From positions 7,256 to 71,255 of the forward strand of contig JACPMR010000015.1 of the NCBI GenBank assembly GCA_016185945.1: a DNA stretch of 64,000 nucleotides, read 5' to 3'. The number at the start of each line of letters is the position of its first letter. The stretch's first letter is position 1. Below, piece after piece: positions 9,458 to 23,814 of this stretch. The position numbers and the translations under genes are program-made. Below the pieces are notes generated by a model, which ran no database searches, was not told the DNA's origin, and worked only from the letters and a program-made list of their open reading frames with translations. The stretch is from Candidatus Woesearchaeota archaeon (GTDB lineage: Archaea > Nanobdellota > Nanobdellia > Woesearchaeales > GW2011-AR4).

Positions 9458-10087
9458 ATGGAGAGAATTATGGAGTTTAATATGGATTTCGGAACTATAG
9501 TCAAGGAAAGGTACGCAACAAAATTATTTGATGGAAAAAAGATACCTGAAGATAAAGTTAATGAGTTAATAGAAATAATAAGATATGCTCCTTCTTCTTT
9601 CAACATACAGCCGTGGAAGATAATTGCAGTAACCGATTCAAAAATTAAGGAAAAGCTTTCACCAGCATCATGGAACCAGCCGCAGATAACTTCCTGCTCT
9701 CGTCTGCTTGTTTTCTGTGCAAACAAGGATATTGCAGGCAACATAGACAAGCTTGAAGAATTGATGATTAAGGCAGGCGCAAAGCCAGAGGATATCAAGC
9801 CATATGTTGACATGATGCGGGGATTTGAAAAAAGCTTGAATGACGAGCAGAAATTAAGCTGGGCTCAAAGGCAAATGTTTCTTGCTTTGGGGAATGCTGT
9901 CAATGGAGCAAAATCACTTGGCTTTGACTCATGCCCGATGGAGGGCTTTAATCCAGAAGAATATGCAAAAATTCTTAAGCTACCAGATAATTTAGTTCCC
10001 ACTGCATTATGCCCGATTGGATATGCGGCAGACAAGCCAAAAACAAAATTTAGGTTTTCTGAGGAAGAGGTATTTGTCTATAAGTGA
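9458..10087 (+). CDS. nitroreductase-family protein
   Basis: Nitroreductase motifs ERYATKLFD, APSSFNIQPWKIIAV, C-terminal GYAADKP. Confidence 0.8.
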   Translation: MERIMEFNMDFGTIVKERYATKLFDGKKIPEDKVNELIEIIRYAPSSFNIQPWKIIAVTDSKIKEKLSPASWNQPQITSCSRLLVFCANKDIAGNIDKLEELMIKAGAKPEDIKPYVDMMRGFEKSLNDEQKLSWAQRQMFLALGNAVNGAKSLGFDSCPMEGFNPEEYAKILKLPDNLVPTALCPIGYAADKPKTKFRFSEEEVFVYK

Positions 10088-18827: not shown

Positions 18828-18917
18828 CTATGTAATACATATGTAATACGGAAGTATTTAAAGGTTTTGGGTAGGAATATAGGAAATATTTAAATTATCA
18901 AAACTTATCCTGTATAT

Positions 18918-19703
18918 ATGAAAGAGAAAGCTGTAGAAAAAGTGGAAAATTTCATTGATTTATCCATGCCTATTGTGAAAGCCGCTGTTAACATACCTAC
19001 TTTAGGTTTTGGTGGAGCTGTTATCGAAATATTTCAAACTGACTACCGATTATCAAAAGAAAGGAATATTAAAGAGTTTTTTGAAAGTATAGACAAAAAA
19101 CTAAAGGAAATAGGAATACAAATTGATGAGACAATTAAAGAAAGGCTGAAATCTCCTGAATTCTATCAGATTATCACAAGAATACTAACTAAAATTCAAA
19201 TAGAAAGTAGAAAAGAAATAAGAGAGATTTATTCAAATTTACTTATTCAATTACTTAAGGAAGAACCAAAAATTAATTTTAATCAAAAATTATTTTATTT
19301 AGAAATATTGGGAAATTTAAATGAAGACCATATTAAAATATTAAGTGTTTTTTATAAGGAAGGGGAAGTAAAAAGCAGATTTAGACTAGATTCACTTTAT
19401 GAAAAGACTCGATGTTATGAAACCAAGAAATTAAAAAAAGGTGATCCAGATTTTGATTTTATGGGATTTAAAGAACGGAAAACTCTAAATTATGCGAAAT
19501 CTTCTTATTTTAAAGGTTTAGTAAGTGACTTAGTTGGTAAACAAATAATTGATATTTTTCAAGAAATTGAATCAACCCCAGAATACAAAGAAGAGGGAGA
19601 TGTTAGAAAAGAGTTAAAATCTATTGAATCAGAAATAAAGGAAGAATATGAAGGAACAGAATTGGGATTAAGTTTCTATAAATTTGTTCTGACTTATAAA
19701 TGA
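18918..19703 (+). CDS. hypothetical protein, first gene of a two-gene module (possible Abi-like partner)
   Basis: 261 aa, no recognisable catalytic motif; hydrophobic Gly-rich N-terminal segment IPTLGFGGAVIEIF; co-oriented, 35 bp upstream of a PD-(D/E)xK nuclease-like gene. Confidence 0.4.
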   Translation: MKEKAVEKVENFIDLSMPIVKAAVNIPTLGFGGAVIEIFQTDYRLSKERNIKEFFESIDKKLKEIGIQIDETIKERLKSPEFYQIITRILTKIQIESRKEIREIYSNLLIQLLKEEPKINFNQKLFYLEILGNLNEDHIKILSVFYKEGEVKSRFRLDSLYEKTRCYETKKLKKGDPDFDFMGFKERKTLNYAKSSYFKGLVSDLVGKQIIDIFQEIESTPEYKEEGDVRKELKSIESEIKEEYEGTELGLSFYKFVLTYK

Positions 19704-19738
19704 AAAATCAAAATTTTTAAAGGAATTCAGATTAATTT

Positions 19739-20635
19739 TTGAACATGGATAATTCAATCAAAGAAAAGATAAAAAATCACATTTTAGAGCATGGATTTTT
19801 ATTAGAAGAAGAAACTAAAACTTTCTTAGAGTTACAAGGATGGGAATGTGAAAGAAATGCTCATTTCGTCGATCAAGATGTTCCAACCGAATCAAGAGAG
19901 ATTGATATAATTGCCCGTAATTTTAGTTGGTATAAAAATTTTGACCCAAAAAGGATTCTAGTTAGATTTGATTTAATAATTGAATGTAAAAACTATAAAG
20001 ATCCAATAGTATTTTTTTCTACTAATAAAACTAGAGAGGACAAAGAAATTTTCTTTTCAAAAGAATTGATCAATTTTTTTACTACCCATGATACTGTTTA
20101 CGTGCCTATTCCAGAATCACAAAATAAAAAAGTTATATCTGTTGCTGAATTCTTGAAAATTGATAAATATCATCATTTTTTTAATAGTAATTTAAAAGCC
20201 ACAAACCTTAATTTATCAAGAGTTAAGTCTGATTATTCATTCTCAAATATAAAATTATATGAAGCTACTATATTACCATTAATCAAAGCAAATGACTGGT
20301 ACAGAGCAGACCGTAAGAATAGTGTTAAACTTTTTGCTGGAAATAGTATCCACGTACCATTTTCATTTATTATTCCAATTTTAGTACTTGGTAATGATTT
20401 TTTTGAAGCATATTTTGAAAATGGAGAGCTTAAATTAAAAAAATCAGATTATATTCAATTTATTTCTGATTATAGATCCAAAAATATAAATGGACGTTTC
20501 CAAATTGATATAGTGAATAAAAGTTATTTTGAAAATTATCTAAAAGAAAAAGTAGATGTGACTATTAATAAGGTTAGTGAAGTTATATTAAATAACTTCC
20601 AAGATATAGATAGATTTAGTCATATTTCAAATTAA
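19739..20635 (+). CDS. PD-(D/E)xK (restriction-endonuclease-fold) nuclease-like protein with C-terminal domain of unknown function
   Basis: N-terminal segment EIDIIARNF ... RFDLIIECKNY supplies a D ... D-x4-E-C-K motif typical of Mrr/NERD-like nucleases; about 200 aa of unassigned C-terminus. Confidence 0.5.
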   Translation: MNMDNSIKEKIKNHILEHGFLLEEETKTFLELQGWECERNAHFVDQDVPTESREIDIIARNFSWYKNFDPKRILVRFDLIIECKNYKDPIVFFSTNKTREDKEIFFSKELINFFTTHDTVYVPIPESQNKKVISVAEFLKIDKYHHFFNSNLKATNLNLSRVKSDYSFSNIKLYEATILPLIKANDWYRADRKNSVKLFAGNSIHVPFSFIIPILVLGNDFFEAYFENGELKLKKSDYIQFISDYRSKNINGRFQIDIVNKSYFENYLKEKVDVTINKVSEVILNNFQDIDRFSHISN

Positions 20636-20643
20636 AAATATAA

Positions 20644-21039
20644 TTATTTAATAATTGAAGTATTAATAAGATTTTGTGTAGTTCCTAAATATCCTCCAAA
20701 CCATAAAGCTGCTATGATTAAGATAGAAAAGGAACCGTATGCTAAAAAACTAATTTGATAGAACTCAACTGGAAGACTTTCTTTTGATAGATAAGCTACT
20801 AAGGCAATTATACCTATAATTGTACCAATATTAAGATAAATTTGAAACCAGTTAGGTAAATTATTGAAATAATGATAAAAGATCTGCCATAATAATAAAG
20901 AATTTAAAAAAATGCCAACTCTTCCTATATAAGATTGTCTAAATTCAACAATACCTGCAACTACTAATCCTATCATAGCAATATATGATAGGGATTTTGG
21001 TAGTATTATTAATGTCTCAATCATTAAAGGTGTTGTCAT
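20644..21039 (-). CDS. small integral membrane protein (4 TM), unknown function
   Basis: 131 aa, four hydrophobic helices. Confidence 0.4.
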   Translation of the reverse strand: MTTPLMIETLIILPKSLSYIAMIGLVVAGIVEFRQSYIGRVGIFLNSLLLWQIFYHYFNNLPNWFQIYLNIGTIIGIIALVAYLSKESLPVEFYQISFLAYGSFSILIIAALWFGGYLGTTQNLINTSIIK

Positions 21040-21082
21040 GGTTATAAATTAATAAAAATAATGTTTAAATTTATTGACTAAG

Positions 21083-21400
21083 TTAAGAGTTTATTACATC
21101 TTGTGCAATTTTCTTATAAATTAAATGTAATAAATTATATTTATTATTTTTTTTATTTATCTGGAAATATTTTGATTTATCATCTTCCCTTGTTTGTACA
21201 ATTAAATTTTTATCTAATAAATCTTTAATTGCATTTCTAACTGCTGTTCTTGATAATCCAGTACCTTTATGAATTTGAGTTATGGTAAAATCAAAATTCT
21301 CTCCTAAAAAAAAGAAATCAAGAACTTTAATGGTATTATTAGTACCAAAAACATTTTCAAAAAGGGGTTTACCTAAAAGTAATTTTTGTTTCATCGCCAA
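21083..21400 (-). CDS. winged-helix transcriptional regulator
   Basis: 105 aa; HTH segment ITQIHKGTGLSRTAVRNAIKDLLDKNLIV. Confidence 0.5.
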   Translation of the reverse strand: MAMKQKLLLGKPLFENVFGTNNTIKVLDFFFLGENFDFTITQIHKGTGLSRTAVRNAIKDLLDKNLIVQTREDDKSKYFQINKKNNKYNLLHLIYKKIAQDVINS

Positions 21401-21516
21401 TTCACCTCTTATTTGAAAATGACTACTGAAGTATTATAATAAATCATAAAGTTTAAATATCAGTACACCCTAACTCCTTATAGGTGTATGTTAGGGTGAC
21501 TGACAAAAAACTTTTC

Positions 21517-21756
21517 TTATCTTTTTCTTGGAACAAAAGTTAACTTACCATTTTTCAATGGAATAATTTCCTTTCTTTCAATCAAGCCATCAATTGATTT
21601 ATCCGAATTTTTGGTATTTATACCAATATTTTTTAGATAAACAACAATCTCTGCTCGATGAAAGCTGGTTATTCCAGCGTTCTTTAATTCGATAAGATAG
21701 TTTTGTACTATGTTATCTATGGGCCTCATCGTAATCACCTTCCCCCACCGACCCAA
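21517..21756 (-). CDS. small hypothetical protein
   Basis: 79 aa ORF followed by a 9-bp perfect inverted repeat CACCCTAAC ... GTTAGGGTG at 21457-21495. Confidence 0.3.
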   Translation of the reverse strand: MGRWGKVITMRPIDNIVQNYLIELKNAGITSFHRAEIVVYLKNIGINTKNSDKSIDGLIERKEIIPLKNGKLTFVPRKR

Positions 21757-21950
21757 GCAGGTTTAAACATGATTTTTCAGGAGGAAAAATCAATGGCAAA
21801 TACAACAATTTCTTTTTGGAAGGTGATTAGTCGTTGCCGACTAACAAGATGTGTTATTCTTAGAGTTTATAAATGTTTCCTTTTTAGAACATTATCGTCT
21901 TAAAAAAGACATAAACTAAACCTATAGATTTGGAATAAACCCTTTCTAAA

Positions 21951-22040
21951 CCTCCACTTCCCTCTCCACCACAATCTTCCCTGTCACACTCCTCACTATT
22001 TGATTGATTATCTCCAAATCATAGAATTGTTTTAGTGAAA
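21951..22040. repeat. degenerate direct duplicate of the 3' end of the radical SAM gene (att-like)
   Basis: CCACTTCC ... ACAATCTTCCCTGTCACACTCCTCA matches CCACTTCC ... ACAACCTTCCCAGTCACGCTCCTCA at 22331-22420 (the real gene end), about 22/25 identity in the core and weaker on the flanks; the copies bracket the Bro-N fragment. Confidence 0.55.
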
Positions 22041-22124
22041 GCATTCATAGCCTCAAAAAGCATTCAAATACCACTGGACATTCCCAGACAAAGTATTTAA
22101 AGCAATACTTGTACTCATGCCAAC

Positions 22125-22352
22125 ATGGAGCCTGAAAACGCCCTTGTAGTATTCCAAGGCAAGAAAATAAGGAGAACTTGGTTTAATGATGAGTGGTGGT
22201 TTGTAGCCGTTGATATTGTAGAGGCATTGACTGACTCAAAAGACCCTAATGGCTATTTAAAGGATATGCGAAGGAGGGATGAAGGCTTTGCTCAAGGATG
22301 GGGGCAAATTGCCACCCCCCTTTCTATTGATACACCACTTCCACTTTCTTAA
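22125..22352 (+). pseudogene. Bro-N (phage antirepressor N-terminal) domain fragment
   Basis: 75 aa: ALVVFQGKKIRRTWFNDEWWFVAVDIVEALTDSKDP fits the Bro-N pattern (F-F ... IR ... WF-A-DVA--LG); truncated, GC-richer than surroundings, 3' end overlaps the radical SAM gene. Confidence 0.5.
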
Positions 22353-23814
22353 CAACCTTCCCAGTCACGCTCCTCAACATCTGCCCCGTAACCTCAATGT
22401 CATAAAACTTCTTCAACTCTAGTCTTCCTTTAACCCCAACAATGATAGGATATGTTCCAAATTGACGGCAAAAAGTTGTATTCCCATCATAAATCTCGGC
22501 ATAGCAATTAGTCAAAACTGTTCCATTTGGAATTACTCTCTGGAGCATTGGCCAGTCAATCTTCTGCCTTATGTCATTGCGCCATTTCCAATATAATTTC
22601 TTGTTCTTCTTCAGGAACTTGTCTTTGCCTTCATTGTACAAAGAAGTGCCTTCAAATATTGCAACCTGCCTAATATTTATCCTGCGAAGCATCAATCCTT
22701 CATTGTAAATTCTTGAAAGCCATTTCATGTTTTCTTCATGCGTTTTCTTGGTTTCATTCCTCAAGCCGAATATTATGTTGACTCCGGGCAAAAACTTAGG
22801 AAGTCCATCAGAGCCTCCTTCAGAGCCATACTTGTTCAAAATCTTAATTGCTTCATAAGCAATATTTGGCGGAGTGTTCAAAGTGTTTGCCTTGACAACT
22901 TCCATGTCAAATGATTCAATTCCAAAAGCAGCTATGTTGCCTGAAGTGCAATACTTCACAACAGCTTTTGTGATTGCAAAATCATTCTGCCTGTCCATCA
23001 CAACTTTTACAGGGTTTACATTGTCAATGTGCAAAACTTTTATGCCAGGGCATTTCTCATTGATTTCTTTTAACAATTCAGCAGCATAAGGCAAAGTGTA
23101 AAAGCATGTCTGCTTTCCCAATCTAAAGTAGCGAGCGCCAAGCTTGTAAAACTCAATAATTTCATTCAGAACATCCTCTTTATTCCTGAACTCAACCTTA
23201 TTCTTCAAAGGCTCTGTGCAGAAAGAGCATTTTCCAATGTCGCAGCCATGCCCTGTCTCAATCTCAACCATTCTCAAGCCAGGAATCTGTTTTATGATTG
23301 ATGCCCCTTTAACGGAATATTCCTTAACATCCTTGTACGGAAAATTAAACATCAAATGCTCAACCTTGTCAAAAATGCTTAAATCCGCCTTCTCAAAGAA
23401 CCTGCCTCCGAATAATTGCGTGCCAAACACGGCAGGCCCTGTCAAAATCTTCCTGCATTTCAAATCCTTTAACATCGGGATAATCTCGTGCAAAGTGCCA
23501 GGCACAGCAGAAAGATACTTTCCGGGAACGTGAACGCCAAGAACAACAACCAAAGTTTGTGTTTCCTCCAATATTTTTTCAATATTTTTGTGATTTACAG
23601 TCAGATTGTATGTTGTTATGTCGGTTTTTTGTGATAATTTTGTCTCCTTGACAATTCCGTTATGCTTCTTCCATAACCTCAAATCATCAATTGTCAGGTA
23701 ATTAACATCTTCATTAAGGTAGCCGGCTATGTACCTTGGGTATGTGCCAAGGTAAGGAGGCACTCCCAAGCCAGCGGGCTCGTCAGTATAGCAGTCAATT
23801 ATAGTATAAGTCAT
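22324..23814 (-). CDS. radical SAM superfamily protein (archaeal subfamily, unusual CX4CX2C cluster)
   Basis: 496 aa; Cys cluster GHGCDIGKCSFCTEP (C-x4-C-x2-C); N-terminal domain of unknown function (MTYTIIDCYTDEPAGLGVPP) is a possible B12-binding-like module. Confidence 0.65.
   Translation of the reverse strand: MTYTIIDCYTDEPAGLGVPPYLGTYPRYIAGYLNEDVNYLTIDDLRLWKKHNGIVKETKLSQKTDITTYNLTVNHKNIEKILEETQTLVVVLGVHVPGKYLSAVPGTLHEIIPMLKDLKCRKILTGPAVFGTQLFGGRFFEKADLSIFDKVEHLMFNFPYKDVKEYSVKGASIIKQIPGLRMVEIETGHGCDIGKCSFCTEPLKNKVEFRNKEDVLNEIIEFYKLGARYFRLGKQTCFYTLPYAAELLKEINEKCPGIKVLHIDNVNPVKVVMDRQNDFAITKAVVKYCTSGNIAAFGIESFDMEVVKANTLNTPPNIAYEAIKILNKYGSEGGSDGLPKFLPGVNIIFGLRNETKKTHEENMKWLSRIYNEGLMLRRINIRQVAIFEGTSLYNEGKDKFLKKNKKLYWKWRNDIRQKIDWPMLQRVIPNGTVLTNCYAEIYDGNTTFCRQFGTYPIIVGVKGRLELKKFYDIEVTGQMLRSVTGKVVKKVEVVYQ

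Follow-up and report, generated by a model that had tools for sequence, protein, structure and literature searches.

We analyzed a 64,000-nt stretch of DNA from Candidatus Woesearchaeota archaeon (assembly GCA_016185945.1, contig JACPMR010000015.1, positions 7,256 to 71,255; hereafter the window), in which the 3' end of a radical SAM gene adjoins a fragment of a Bro-N gene and a second, displaced copy of the gene end. With moderate confidence, we propose that this locus is a scar left by illegitimate, homology-anchored recombination on the margin of a hypervariable defence island. The names of the closest proteins and 55 syntenic genome loci identify the source as a DPANN archaeon of the Woesearchaeota/Nanoarchaeota kind, and the GC content of the window is 37% overall. 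Read in the sense of the radical SAM gene, the order is copy A of the gene end, 288 nt, copy B, a low-GC island and then conserved genes; on the opposite strand, the 288 nt that separate the two copies hold the promoter region (78 nt) and the first 70 codons of the Bro-N gene. The features concerned are listed below; L numbers refer to loci with which the window was compared.

22324..23814, minus strand: radical SAM gene, 496 aa, intact, conserved in Woesearchaeota/Nanoarchaeota.
22335..22424, minus strand: copy A, the functional 3' end of that gene ('ELKKFYDIEV...KVVKKVEV' allele), from alignment with L060, L062, L024 and L050.
22334..22335, no strand: junction between copy A and antisense Bro DNA, at the limit of Bro homology and of radical SAM homology.
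22294..22323, no strand: GC-rich imperfect palindrome AAGGA-TGGGGGCAAATTGCCACCCCCC-TTT, 5 nt from the radical SAM stop codon, with a 21-mer core at 22299-22319.
22125..22352, plus strand: open reading frame (ORF) of 75 aa, consisting of codons 1-70 of a Bro-N plus DinD-like (PDC-S13) gene and then five codons of antisense radical SAM sequence.
22047..22124, plus strand: upstream region of the Bro gene, aligned with the Bro upstream regions of L020, L063 and L004.
21946..22046, minus strand: copy B, a displaced 3' end ('PLKQFYDLEI...KIVVEREVEV' allele, with stop codon), from tblastn, blastn and alignment.

The radical SAM gene scored 37.9 bits against the Pfam profile Radical_SAM (PF04055; threshold 29.5 bits, E=2.7e-9). 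Its homologs are 72-89% identical, it is syntenic in 55 genomes, and its relatives are named 'radical SAM with C-terminal helix-hairpin-helix' in JGI. The true gene end encodes LELKKFYDIEVTGQMLRSVTGKVVKKVEVVYQ followed by the stop codon. Copy A has the same type of tail as L060, L062, L024 and L050 and a dN/dS of 0.02-0.04 against relatives, and it is without the native last one or two codons and the native stop codon that are found in L060, L062 and L024. The present end of the gene, V-Y-Q-TAG (stop codon at 22324-22326), is read from antisense Bro codons 67-70, with the radical SAM ORF running three codons into antisense Bro DNA. The Bro homology ('...GWGQIATPLSIDT', PLSIDT) extends to about 22334-22336, and the A-type radical SAM homology resumes at 22335, where the homology to L060 ends at ACCACTTCCAC; the overlap at this junction is 2-3 nt. 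At the other side, the Bro upstream region meets copy B at 22046/22047 without any shared sequence. With short microhomology at most, both junctions are illegitimate. A 9-mer, CCCTTTCTA, occurs in the Bro DNA (22318-22326) and again at the stop codon of B (21940-21948), out of register with the repeat, and it is possibly a microhomology rather than the core of an attachment (att) site. The sequence TAGAAAGGG, which follows both stop codons, was also considered as an att core and was rejected, as in copy A it represents the native Bro codons P-L-S-I and is out of register.

Copy B encodes LSLKQFYDLEIINQIVRSVTGKIVVEREVEV followed by a stop codon; it comprises about 100 nt, stop codon included, and has no gene body upstream. 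The initial annotation had described it as a decayed copy of the last ~85 bp of the gene, and a copy is indeed present, its first base lying 277 nt from the stop codon of A. A tblastn search of the whole window found exactly two such copies, A and B, which are identical at 17 of 29 residues (E=6.6e-8), and the stretch with 22 of 25 identical nucleotides that had been pointed out was reproduced. The duplication is also beyond chance: the score of the local nucleotide alignment was 42, against 18.7±2.4 in 500 shuffles, none of which reached 42. The description of B as a decayed form of A did not hold, because A and B are only 62% identical at the nucleotide level over 29 codons, while blastn matched B to gene ends from other genomes at 73-90% identity, with values of 82-90% among them. 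The two copies thus represent distinct alleles rather than a gene end and its decayed duplicate.

The nearest allele to B is that of L053, with a synonymous distance (pS) of 0.25, 12 non-synonymous and five synonymous changes and a dN/dS of 0.68; in the gene body, the identity to L053 is about 78%. For end A, which is in use, the synonymous distance was 0.5-0.8 in most comparisons with the tested relatives. Given that the dN/dS of B is 0.68, against 0.02-0.04 for A, copy B is decaying under relaxed constraint. It either came from another lineage or was the original gene end here, and it has been released from selection. A stronger wording, in which B was strongly decayed, was toned down, since only two of its substitutions (M to I and L to V) fall at positions that are invariant in 120 homologs; the contrast in dN/dS is the better evidence of decay.

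The two alleles belong to a wider pattern. Among the last 35 residues of 120 homologs, recurring variants are mixed as mosaics, with two forms at each of two segments: 'ELKKFYDIEV' or 'PLKQFYDLEI', and then a tail 'KVVKKVEV..' or 'KVVVEREVEV'. Copy A has the first form of each segment and copy B the second. Of the C-termini compared (P0001-P0120; L056:11378-11500), that of P0001 carries both tails in tandem (KVVKKVEVEREVEV). Judged from the sequences, the mosaic C-termini suggest that the repetitive GTGGAAGTGG tail often undergoes recombination or slippage.

In the relatives, the radical SAM gene is followed by a hypervariable defence island. The sequence just past the stop codon differs in almost every one of them, and its cargo includes a methyltransferase in one relative, MazE/ParE, PIN and DDE transposase genes in another, an HNH protein in another, Cas6 with further CRISPR-Cas-like genes and a Bro gene in L054, and an Abi module in L009. 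Deletions cutting into the 3' end of the gene itself are also found. In L020 (5669-7063), the end is damaged and reads FCRQFG-GKVVSYKYVIV before the stop codon, without about 31 residues (TYP...SVT) between QFG and GKVV. In L034 (10001-11287), the radical SAM match stops at residue 429, and the conserved genes of the far side follow about 700 nt on. In the window, the corresponding island lies directly past copy B and contains the following.

18871..21945: variable island as a whole, 3.1 kb, 26% GC, from composition, Pfam and PADLOC.
18918-19703, plus strand: Abi_alpha gene (Pfam/PADLOC).
19739-20635, plus strand: gene for a 298-aa protein without assigned function.
Minus strand: gene for a 131-aa membrane protein.
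21083-21400, minus strand: gene for a 105-aa winged-helix/Csa3-like regulator, with weak PADLOC matches to PDC-M05A and Csa3.
21517-21756, minus strand: ORF of 79 aa.

On the far side of the island are conserved genes, namely an AbrB-like/PIN pair and an FKBP isomerase. The segment 18854-20551, which holds the Abi_alpha gene and the 298-aa gene at 26% GC, is 82% identical to L009:2348-4046, and in L009 this Abi module begins 83 nt past a B-type radical SAM stop codon, directly after the gene. The window has an extra 1.4 kb (20552-21945), encoding the membrane protein, the winged-helix regulator and the 79-aa ORF, for which no counterpart was found in any of the related loci fetched. The window therefore shows other-lineage sequence beside a conserved anchor gene, with a B copy that is nearest to the L053-type allele and a low-GC cargo that is shared with L009.

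We also examined the identity of the Bro-N fragment. The 75-aa ORF reported at 22125-22352 is present and shares 29 nt with the end of the radical SAM gene. Its assignment to Bro-N proved solid by homologs: more than 200 database proteins are 60-90% identical to it (best E=2.4e-37), several of which carry PF02498, and a 276-aa protein of L054, which itself scores 51.5 bits on Bro-N, matches it at 70% identity over residues 1-70. The profile search proposed in the initial annotation gave a divided answer. The full-length relative passes, whereas the fragment alone scored 19.8 bits (E=0.0012, profile positions 1-29 of 96), below the Pfam gathering score of 25.6, as the domain breaks off at about 60% of its length. 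Against the PADLOC profile PDC-S13, the fragment matched positions 1-72 of 286 (E=1.1e-17), and the L054 relative matched positions 1-275 of 286 (E=8.9e-109). The fragment thus retains about one quarter of the protein, including about 60% of its Bro-N domain, and the window copy is a truncated PDC-S13 member and probably a pseudogene. It contains no internal stop codon or frameshift, and its dN/dS against intact relatives is 0.02-0.04. Given that it shows no decay, the truncation is either recent or tolerated.

The family to which this fragment belongs is common to phages and defence islands, since it is also present in viral contigs: a profile search of IMG/VR gave 238 relatives, several of them close to contig ends, while an earlier single-protein query of viral contigs had returned no close relatives. 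Among the PHROG families, the best match is one of unassigned function (PHROG 15286), and the Ant families score far lower, at E=0.002-0.007 with the fragment and 1e-8 with the full-length relative. JGI names the relatives 'DNA-damage-inducible protein D', and from these names together with our reading of the sequences, the C-terminal part of the family appears to be DinD-like. In L054, the Bro relative stands after Cas6 and before further CRISPR-Cas-like genes; in L065, it adjoins a Cas4-like nuclease; and in the Arcobacter cloacae plasmid pACLO (L197, 58385-59281), a palindrome-bearing Bro-N gene lies between cas4 and cas1b in a type I-B adaptation module. In L054, L020 and L004, the variable region that follows the radical SAM gene also contains a Bro gene or its remains. 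In our best reading, the Bro gene is therefore part of the normal repertoire of the island and a candidate defence gene, not a virus remnant. PDC-S13 is itself a candidate family of PADLOC with a putative anti-phage role, and a literature search for the family name found no mention in the paper library searched.

Upstream of the Bro gene, conservation with L020 and L063 extends to about 22066. The region contains the motif CCACTGGACAT (22071-22081), which occurs once in the window, and a TATA-like sequence TATTTAAA (22094-22101) that ends 24 nt before the ATG. The composite motif CCACTGGACAT-N6-9-GGCAAA-N-TATTTAAA is found upstream of Bro genes in the window (22071-22101), in L020 (about 9860-9900), in L004 (13030-13070) and in L063. 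The motif is also found about 35 nt past the radical SAM stop codon in L050, L054 and L023, where it precedes other genes (Cas6-like; a 294-aa protein). On the evidence of these sequences, it may be an operator with a TATA box that is shared by genes of the island. In L063 (700-1670), the Bro upstream region of about 150 nt is tandemly repeated, with the start of a Bro gene after each copy, and the gene of the first copy is cut after PLSIDT.

The locus may then have arisen as follows. DNA of a diverged relative would have been joined to this genome, anchored at one side by homology in the radical SAM gene or in the conserved genes beyond the island, and sealed at the other side by a non-homologous join at the level of microhomology. 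The outcome would be a pair of directly oriented but non-identical alleles of the last ~100 nt, of which A completes the working gene and B is orphaned and decaying. Caught between them would be the promoter and 70 codons of a PDC-S13-type gene, broken about 15 nt past the GC-rich palindrome. The incoming DNA would be either A with the Bro fragment or B with the island. A sliding analysis of identity along the gene, by which we sought the crossover points, was uninformative and showed no breakpoint, because all the relatives are about 80% identical at the nucleotide level.

Several points weigh against this proposal. Neither the donor nor a pre-event genome was found among the relatives, all of which are about 80% identical. 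To account for two illegitimate junctions, there must have been two events, unless one of the junctions was already present in the donor. Insertion by an integrase also classically leaves such a pattern, in which foreign DNA is flanked by direct repeats of the 3' end of a gene. Finally, no variants of the window's own population were recovered: the exact protein is absent from the contig index, and a search of metagenomes with a degenerate pattern of the junction (the palindrome and antisense GKVV within 20-45 nt) gave no hits.

The first alternative is an integrase-mediated insertion followed by deletion, in line with the virus or plasmid remnant that the initial annotation had proposed. An element carrying its own version of the gene end would have made A and displaced the host's B, and a later deletion, from just inside the end of A to Bro codon 70, would have removed most of the element together with its integrase. 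It is the likeliest of the alternatives, but we consider it unlikely. Part of what it predicts is there: foreign DNA is joined to the 3' end of the gene, direct repeats of the gene end bracket it, and B is displaced and not under selection. It naturally explains why there are two alleles and why B is the decaying one, and in this respect it does as well as the recombination scar and needs the same number of events. The occurrence of the Bro family in viral contigs also fits, and phage 21 and e14 leave such displaced gene-end fragments in E. coli icd. Beyond the repeat itself, however, it has no positive support. There is no identical core between the copies, as the longest in-register exact match of A and B is 7 nt (TGAGGAG) and falls in the most conserved codons of the gene. 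Searches with Pfam, PADLOC and PHROG found no integrase, recombinase or other mobile-element gene, and no replication gene, between the copies or among the five island genes. On the Bro-derived DNA between A and B, the Bro fragment is the sole ORF, the others of at least 30 aa being short antisense or overlapping frames. Copy A is cut before its stop codon, which means that no complete gene end was brought in. No att-like repeats were found flanking the island, and tblastn found no third gene-end copy bounding it in the window.

A search for the intact element elsewhere also went against an insertion. In 62 related loci, no second gene end was found within 10 kb, and no radical SAM relative was found in the viral contigs of IMG/VR by a single-protein close-relative query, in which the 3' fragment alone was not searched. 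Together with the junction pattern in metagenomes, these searches yielded no intact element that uses the same target. In addition, the close Bro relatives seen here sit in defence islands or CRISPR loci.

As a second alternative, the gene end may have been duplicated within the genome, with a nearby piece of Bro DNA copied by template switching and the two copies diverging afterwards. The ingredients are at hand, given that relatives have Bro genes a few kb downstream of the radical SAM gene, that microhomologies occur at or near the junctions, and that the palindrome beside the break is able to stall replication. Nevertheless, we regard this course of events as improbable. The 5' part of B (PLKQFYDLEI) and its tail (VVEREVEV) both match a distinct allele of other lineages, and B does not resemble a randomly diverged A. 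Moreover, a divergence of 38% in situ should have wrecked the equally unselected Bro fragment, which is intact (dN/dS 0.02-0.04). The last alternative, an assembly chimera in which co-occurring strains with A-type and B-type ends were misjoined at the island boundary, would suit a source that looks like an assembly of an uncultured organism (its relatives are all metagenome-assembled genomes or metagenome contigs), a site that is a strain-variable boundary and a junction that is in no other data set, but it is very improbable, as the junctions share only 2-3 nt (A with Bro) or none (Bro upstream with B), the longest shared word of 9 nt is far shorter than assembler k-mers, and the radical SAM ORF is open across the junction to its stop codon, as expected of a real junction under selection.

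A further characteristic of the Bro fragment concerns the palindrome near its truncated end. The 21-mer TGGGGGCAAATTGCCACCCCC (22299-22319) encodes W-G-Q-I-A-T-P and is identical in all four members that were found independently, namely the window, L054 (9063-9083), L063 and L065. It is also present exactly in more than 120 metagenome contigs (including L065-L069 and L070-L192) that range in GC content from 0.30 to 0.67 and whose proteins are merely 50-70% identical; these contigs were selected by their exact match to the 21-mer, so that only the four independent members inform on the frequency of the motif. Its context is nearly always AAAGGG...C-TT. A literature search for the 21-mer on both strands did not find it in the paper library searched. 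An Rfam scan of 21700-22600 gave no match.

In a sister subfamily, other peptides ('..LTTNCSQLKM..', '..LSEKIGQLKL..') are encoded at the same position by perfect palindromes with other arms. In an alignment of 11 distinct sequences (A1), 87% of the cells pair, compared with 60±3% in shuffles and 31-43% in slid controls. Eleven of the 13 palindrome pairs have changed on both sides, showing covariation, and G-U pairs are almost absent. Among 47 distinct members from viral contigs, an unbiased sample, 45 have a perfect palindrome with arms of 5-13 bp located 98-111 nt upstream of the PSPKAEPF codons; the two exceptions are L236, whose best hairpin has 4 bp at -77, and L204, in which a 5-bp palindrome lies at -100. 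The arms average 7.7 bp, compared with 4.3 bp elsewhere in the same genes, and the centre of the palindrome in the family consists of 1-5 nt of A/T (L193-L202, L203-L282). Two plasmid copies (L195, L196) lack the palindrome. Because of its strict Watson-Crick symmetry, the element points to a site that would act at the level of DNA, either as an operator for a dimer or as a hairpin or cruciform substrate, and it is possible that it acts as an RNA hairpin.

Some copies of the gene are changed at the motif or soon after it. Intact genes have six C in the run within the motif, and genes with five, seven or eight are frameshifted. The changed runs were found in the following loci.

7 C: L065-L069, L118, L148 and L178.
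5 C: L104, L138 and L141.
8 C: L153.

Such a change splits the gene into two overlapping ORFs (77 aa and 221 aa in the L065 type). The L065-type split is identical in five assemblies from different samples and is thus not a random sequencing error; the split genes possibly reflect phase variation or recoding, or are plain pseudogenes. About a tenth of the 21-mer hits are truncated soon after the motif, and L063 breaks within 2 nt of the position at which the window copy breaks, then continues with different sequence.

Orphan palindromes of about 30 nt, without Bro homology on either side, were observed in L070 (7531), L071 (5885), L072 (296), L077, L101, L109, L157 and L172. Some of these lie inside other ORFs, one is in a viral contig of 63% GC, and that of L072 is in a 73-nt tandem duplication; those of L077 and L109 adjoin palindromes of the sister-subfamily type (GTACAAATTGTAC, GTCCGAAAAAATCGGAC). 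We considered them as CRISPR spacers or ectopic spacer insertions and rejected this, as a repeat-like flank (with the 73-nt spacing) was found in L072 only and in none of the others.

Tentatively, we suggest that the whole PDC-S13 family carries a functional cis-element embedded in its coding sequence, a perfect palindrome with covarying arms at a fixed codon position, which is also a hotspot of breakage and slippage and which, in one large subfamily, is frozen as the exact 21-mer in hosts of 30-67% GC. If this speculation is true, then the palindrome would be an operator for the family's own protein, or a hairpin/cruciform site of cleavage or recombination. Such a hotspot would explain the truncated copies (the window breaks 15-17 nt past the palindrome, and L063 independently), the split genes with runs of five, seven or eight C, and the ~30-nt orphan copies. 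The palindrome may also have served as the breakage point of the truncation in the window. Of the features described here, only this conserved palindrome within the coding sequence merits further study. Should it prove functional, a widespread and uncharacterised candidate defence family, found partly in CRISPR adaptation modules, would have a conserved cis-element, and this would offer a handle, as a site of binding, cleavage or attenuation, on what the PDC-S13 proteins do.

The scar is of little import by itself, being a further example of the swapping of defence-island cargo beside an anchor gene, here in a DPANN archaeon. It does indicate that such swaps can be sloppy and still leave the anchor gene open. 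For annotation, a match to Bro-N alone is no marker of a virus, and in this case it belongs to a candidate defence gene. Likewise, a duplicated gene end alone is no proof of integrase activity.

Compared with the PDC-S13 family, the ORF in the window is the N-terminus (1-72 of 286), and the remainder is gone. With the phage antirepressors of the Bro-N/Ant type, the family has the Bro-N domain in common, and there are weak PHROG matches to Ant families, but the full-length relative is matched best by PDC-S13 and by a PHROG family of unassigned function, not by Ant.

With regard to the event itself, phage 21 and e14 insert into the 3' end of icd in E. coli and supply a replacement end, and integrases that target tRNA genes are comparable. 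As in such insertions, foreign DNA in the window is flanked by a working gene end and by a non-identical copy in the same orientation that is displaced and decaying. Unlike them, the locus has no integrase and no identical core, its replacement end is truncated and fused to antisense Bro DNA, just 288 nt lie between the copies, and no related genome shows an element at the site. A second known system is homology-facilitated illegitimate recombination, which combines one homologous anchor with one join at microhomology and is known from natural transformation in Acinetobacter and Streptococcus pneumoniae; it is not known from DPANN archaea. The window resembles this system in having a conserved anchor gene beside variable cargo and junction microhomology of 0-3 nt (or 9 nt), and in keeping a partial duplication of the anchor with alleles from different lineages. 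The locus is best regarded as an ordinary scar of recombination that lies at the boundary of a defence island and holds a truncated PDC-S13-type gene.

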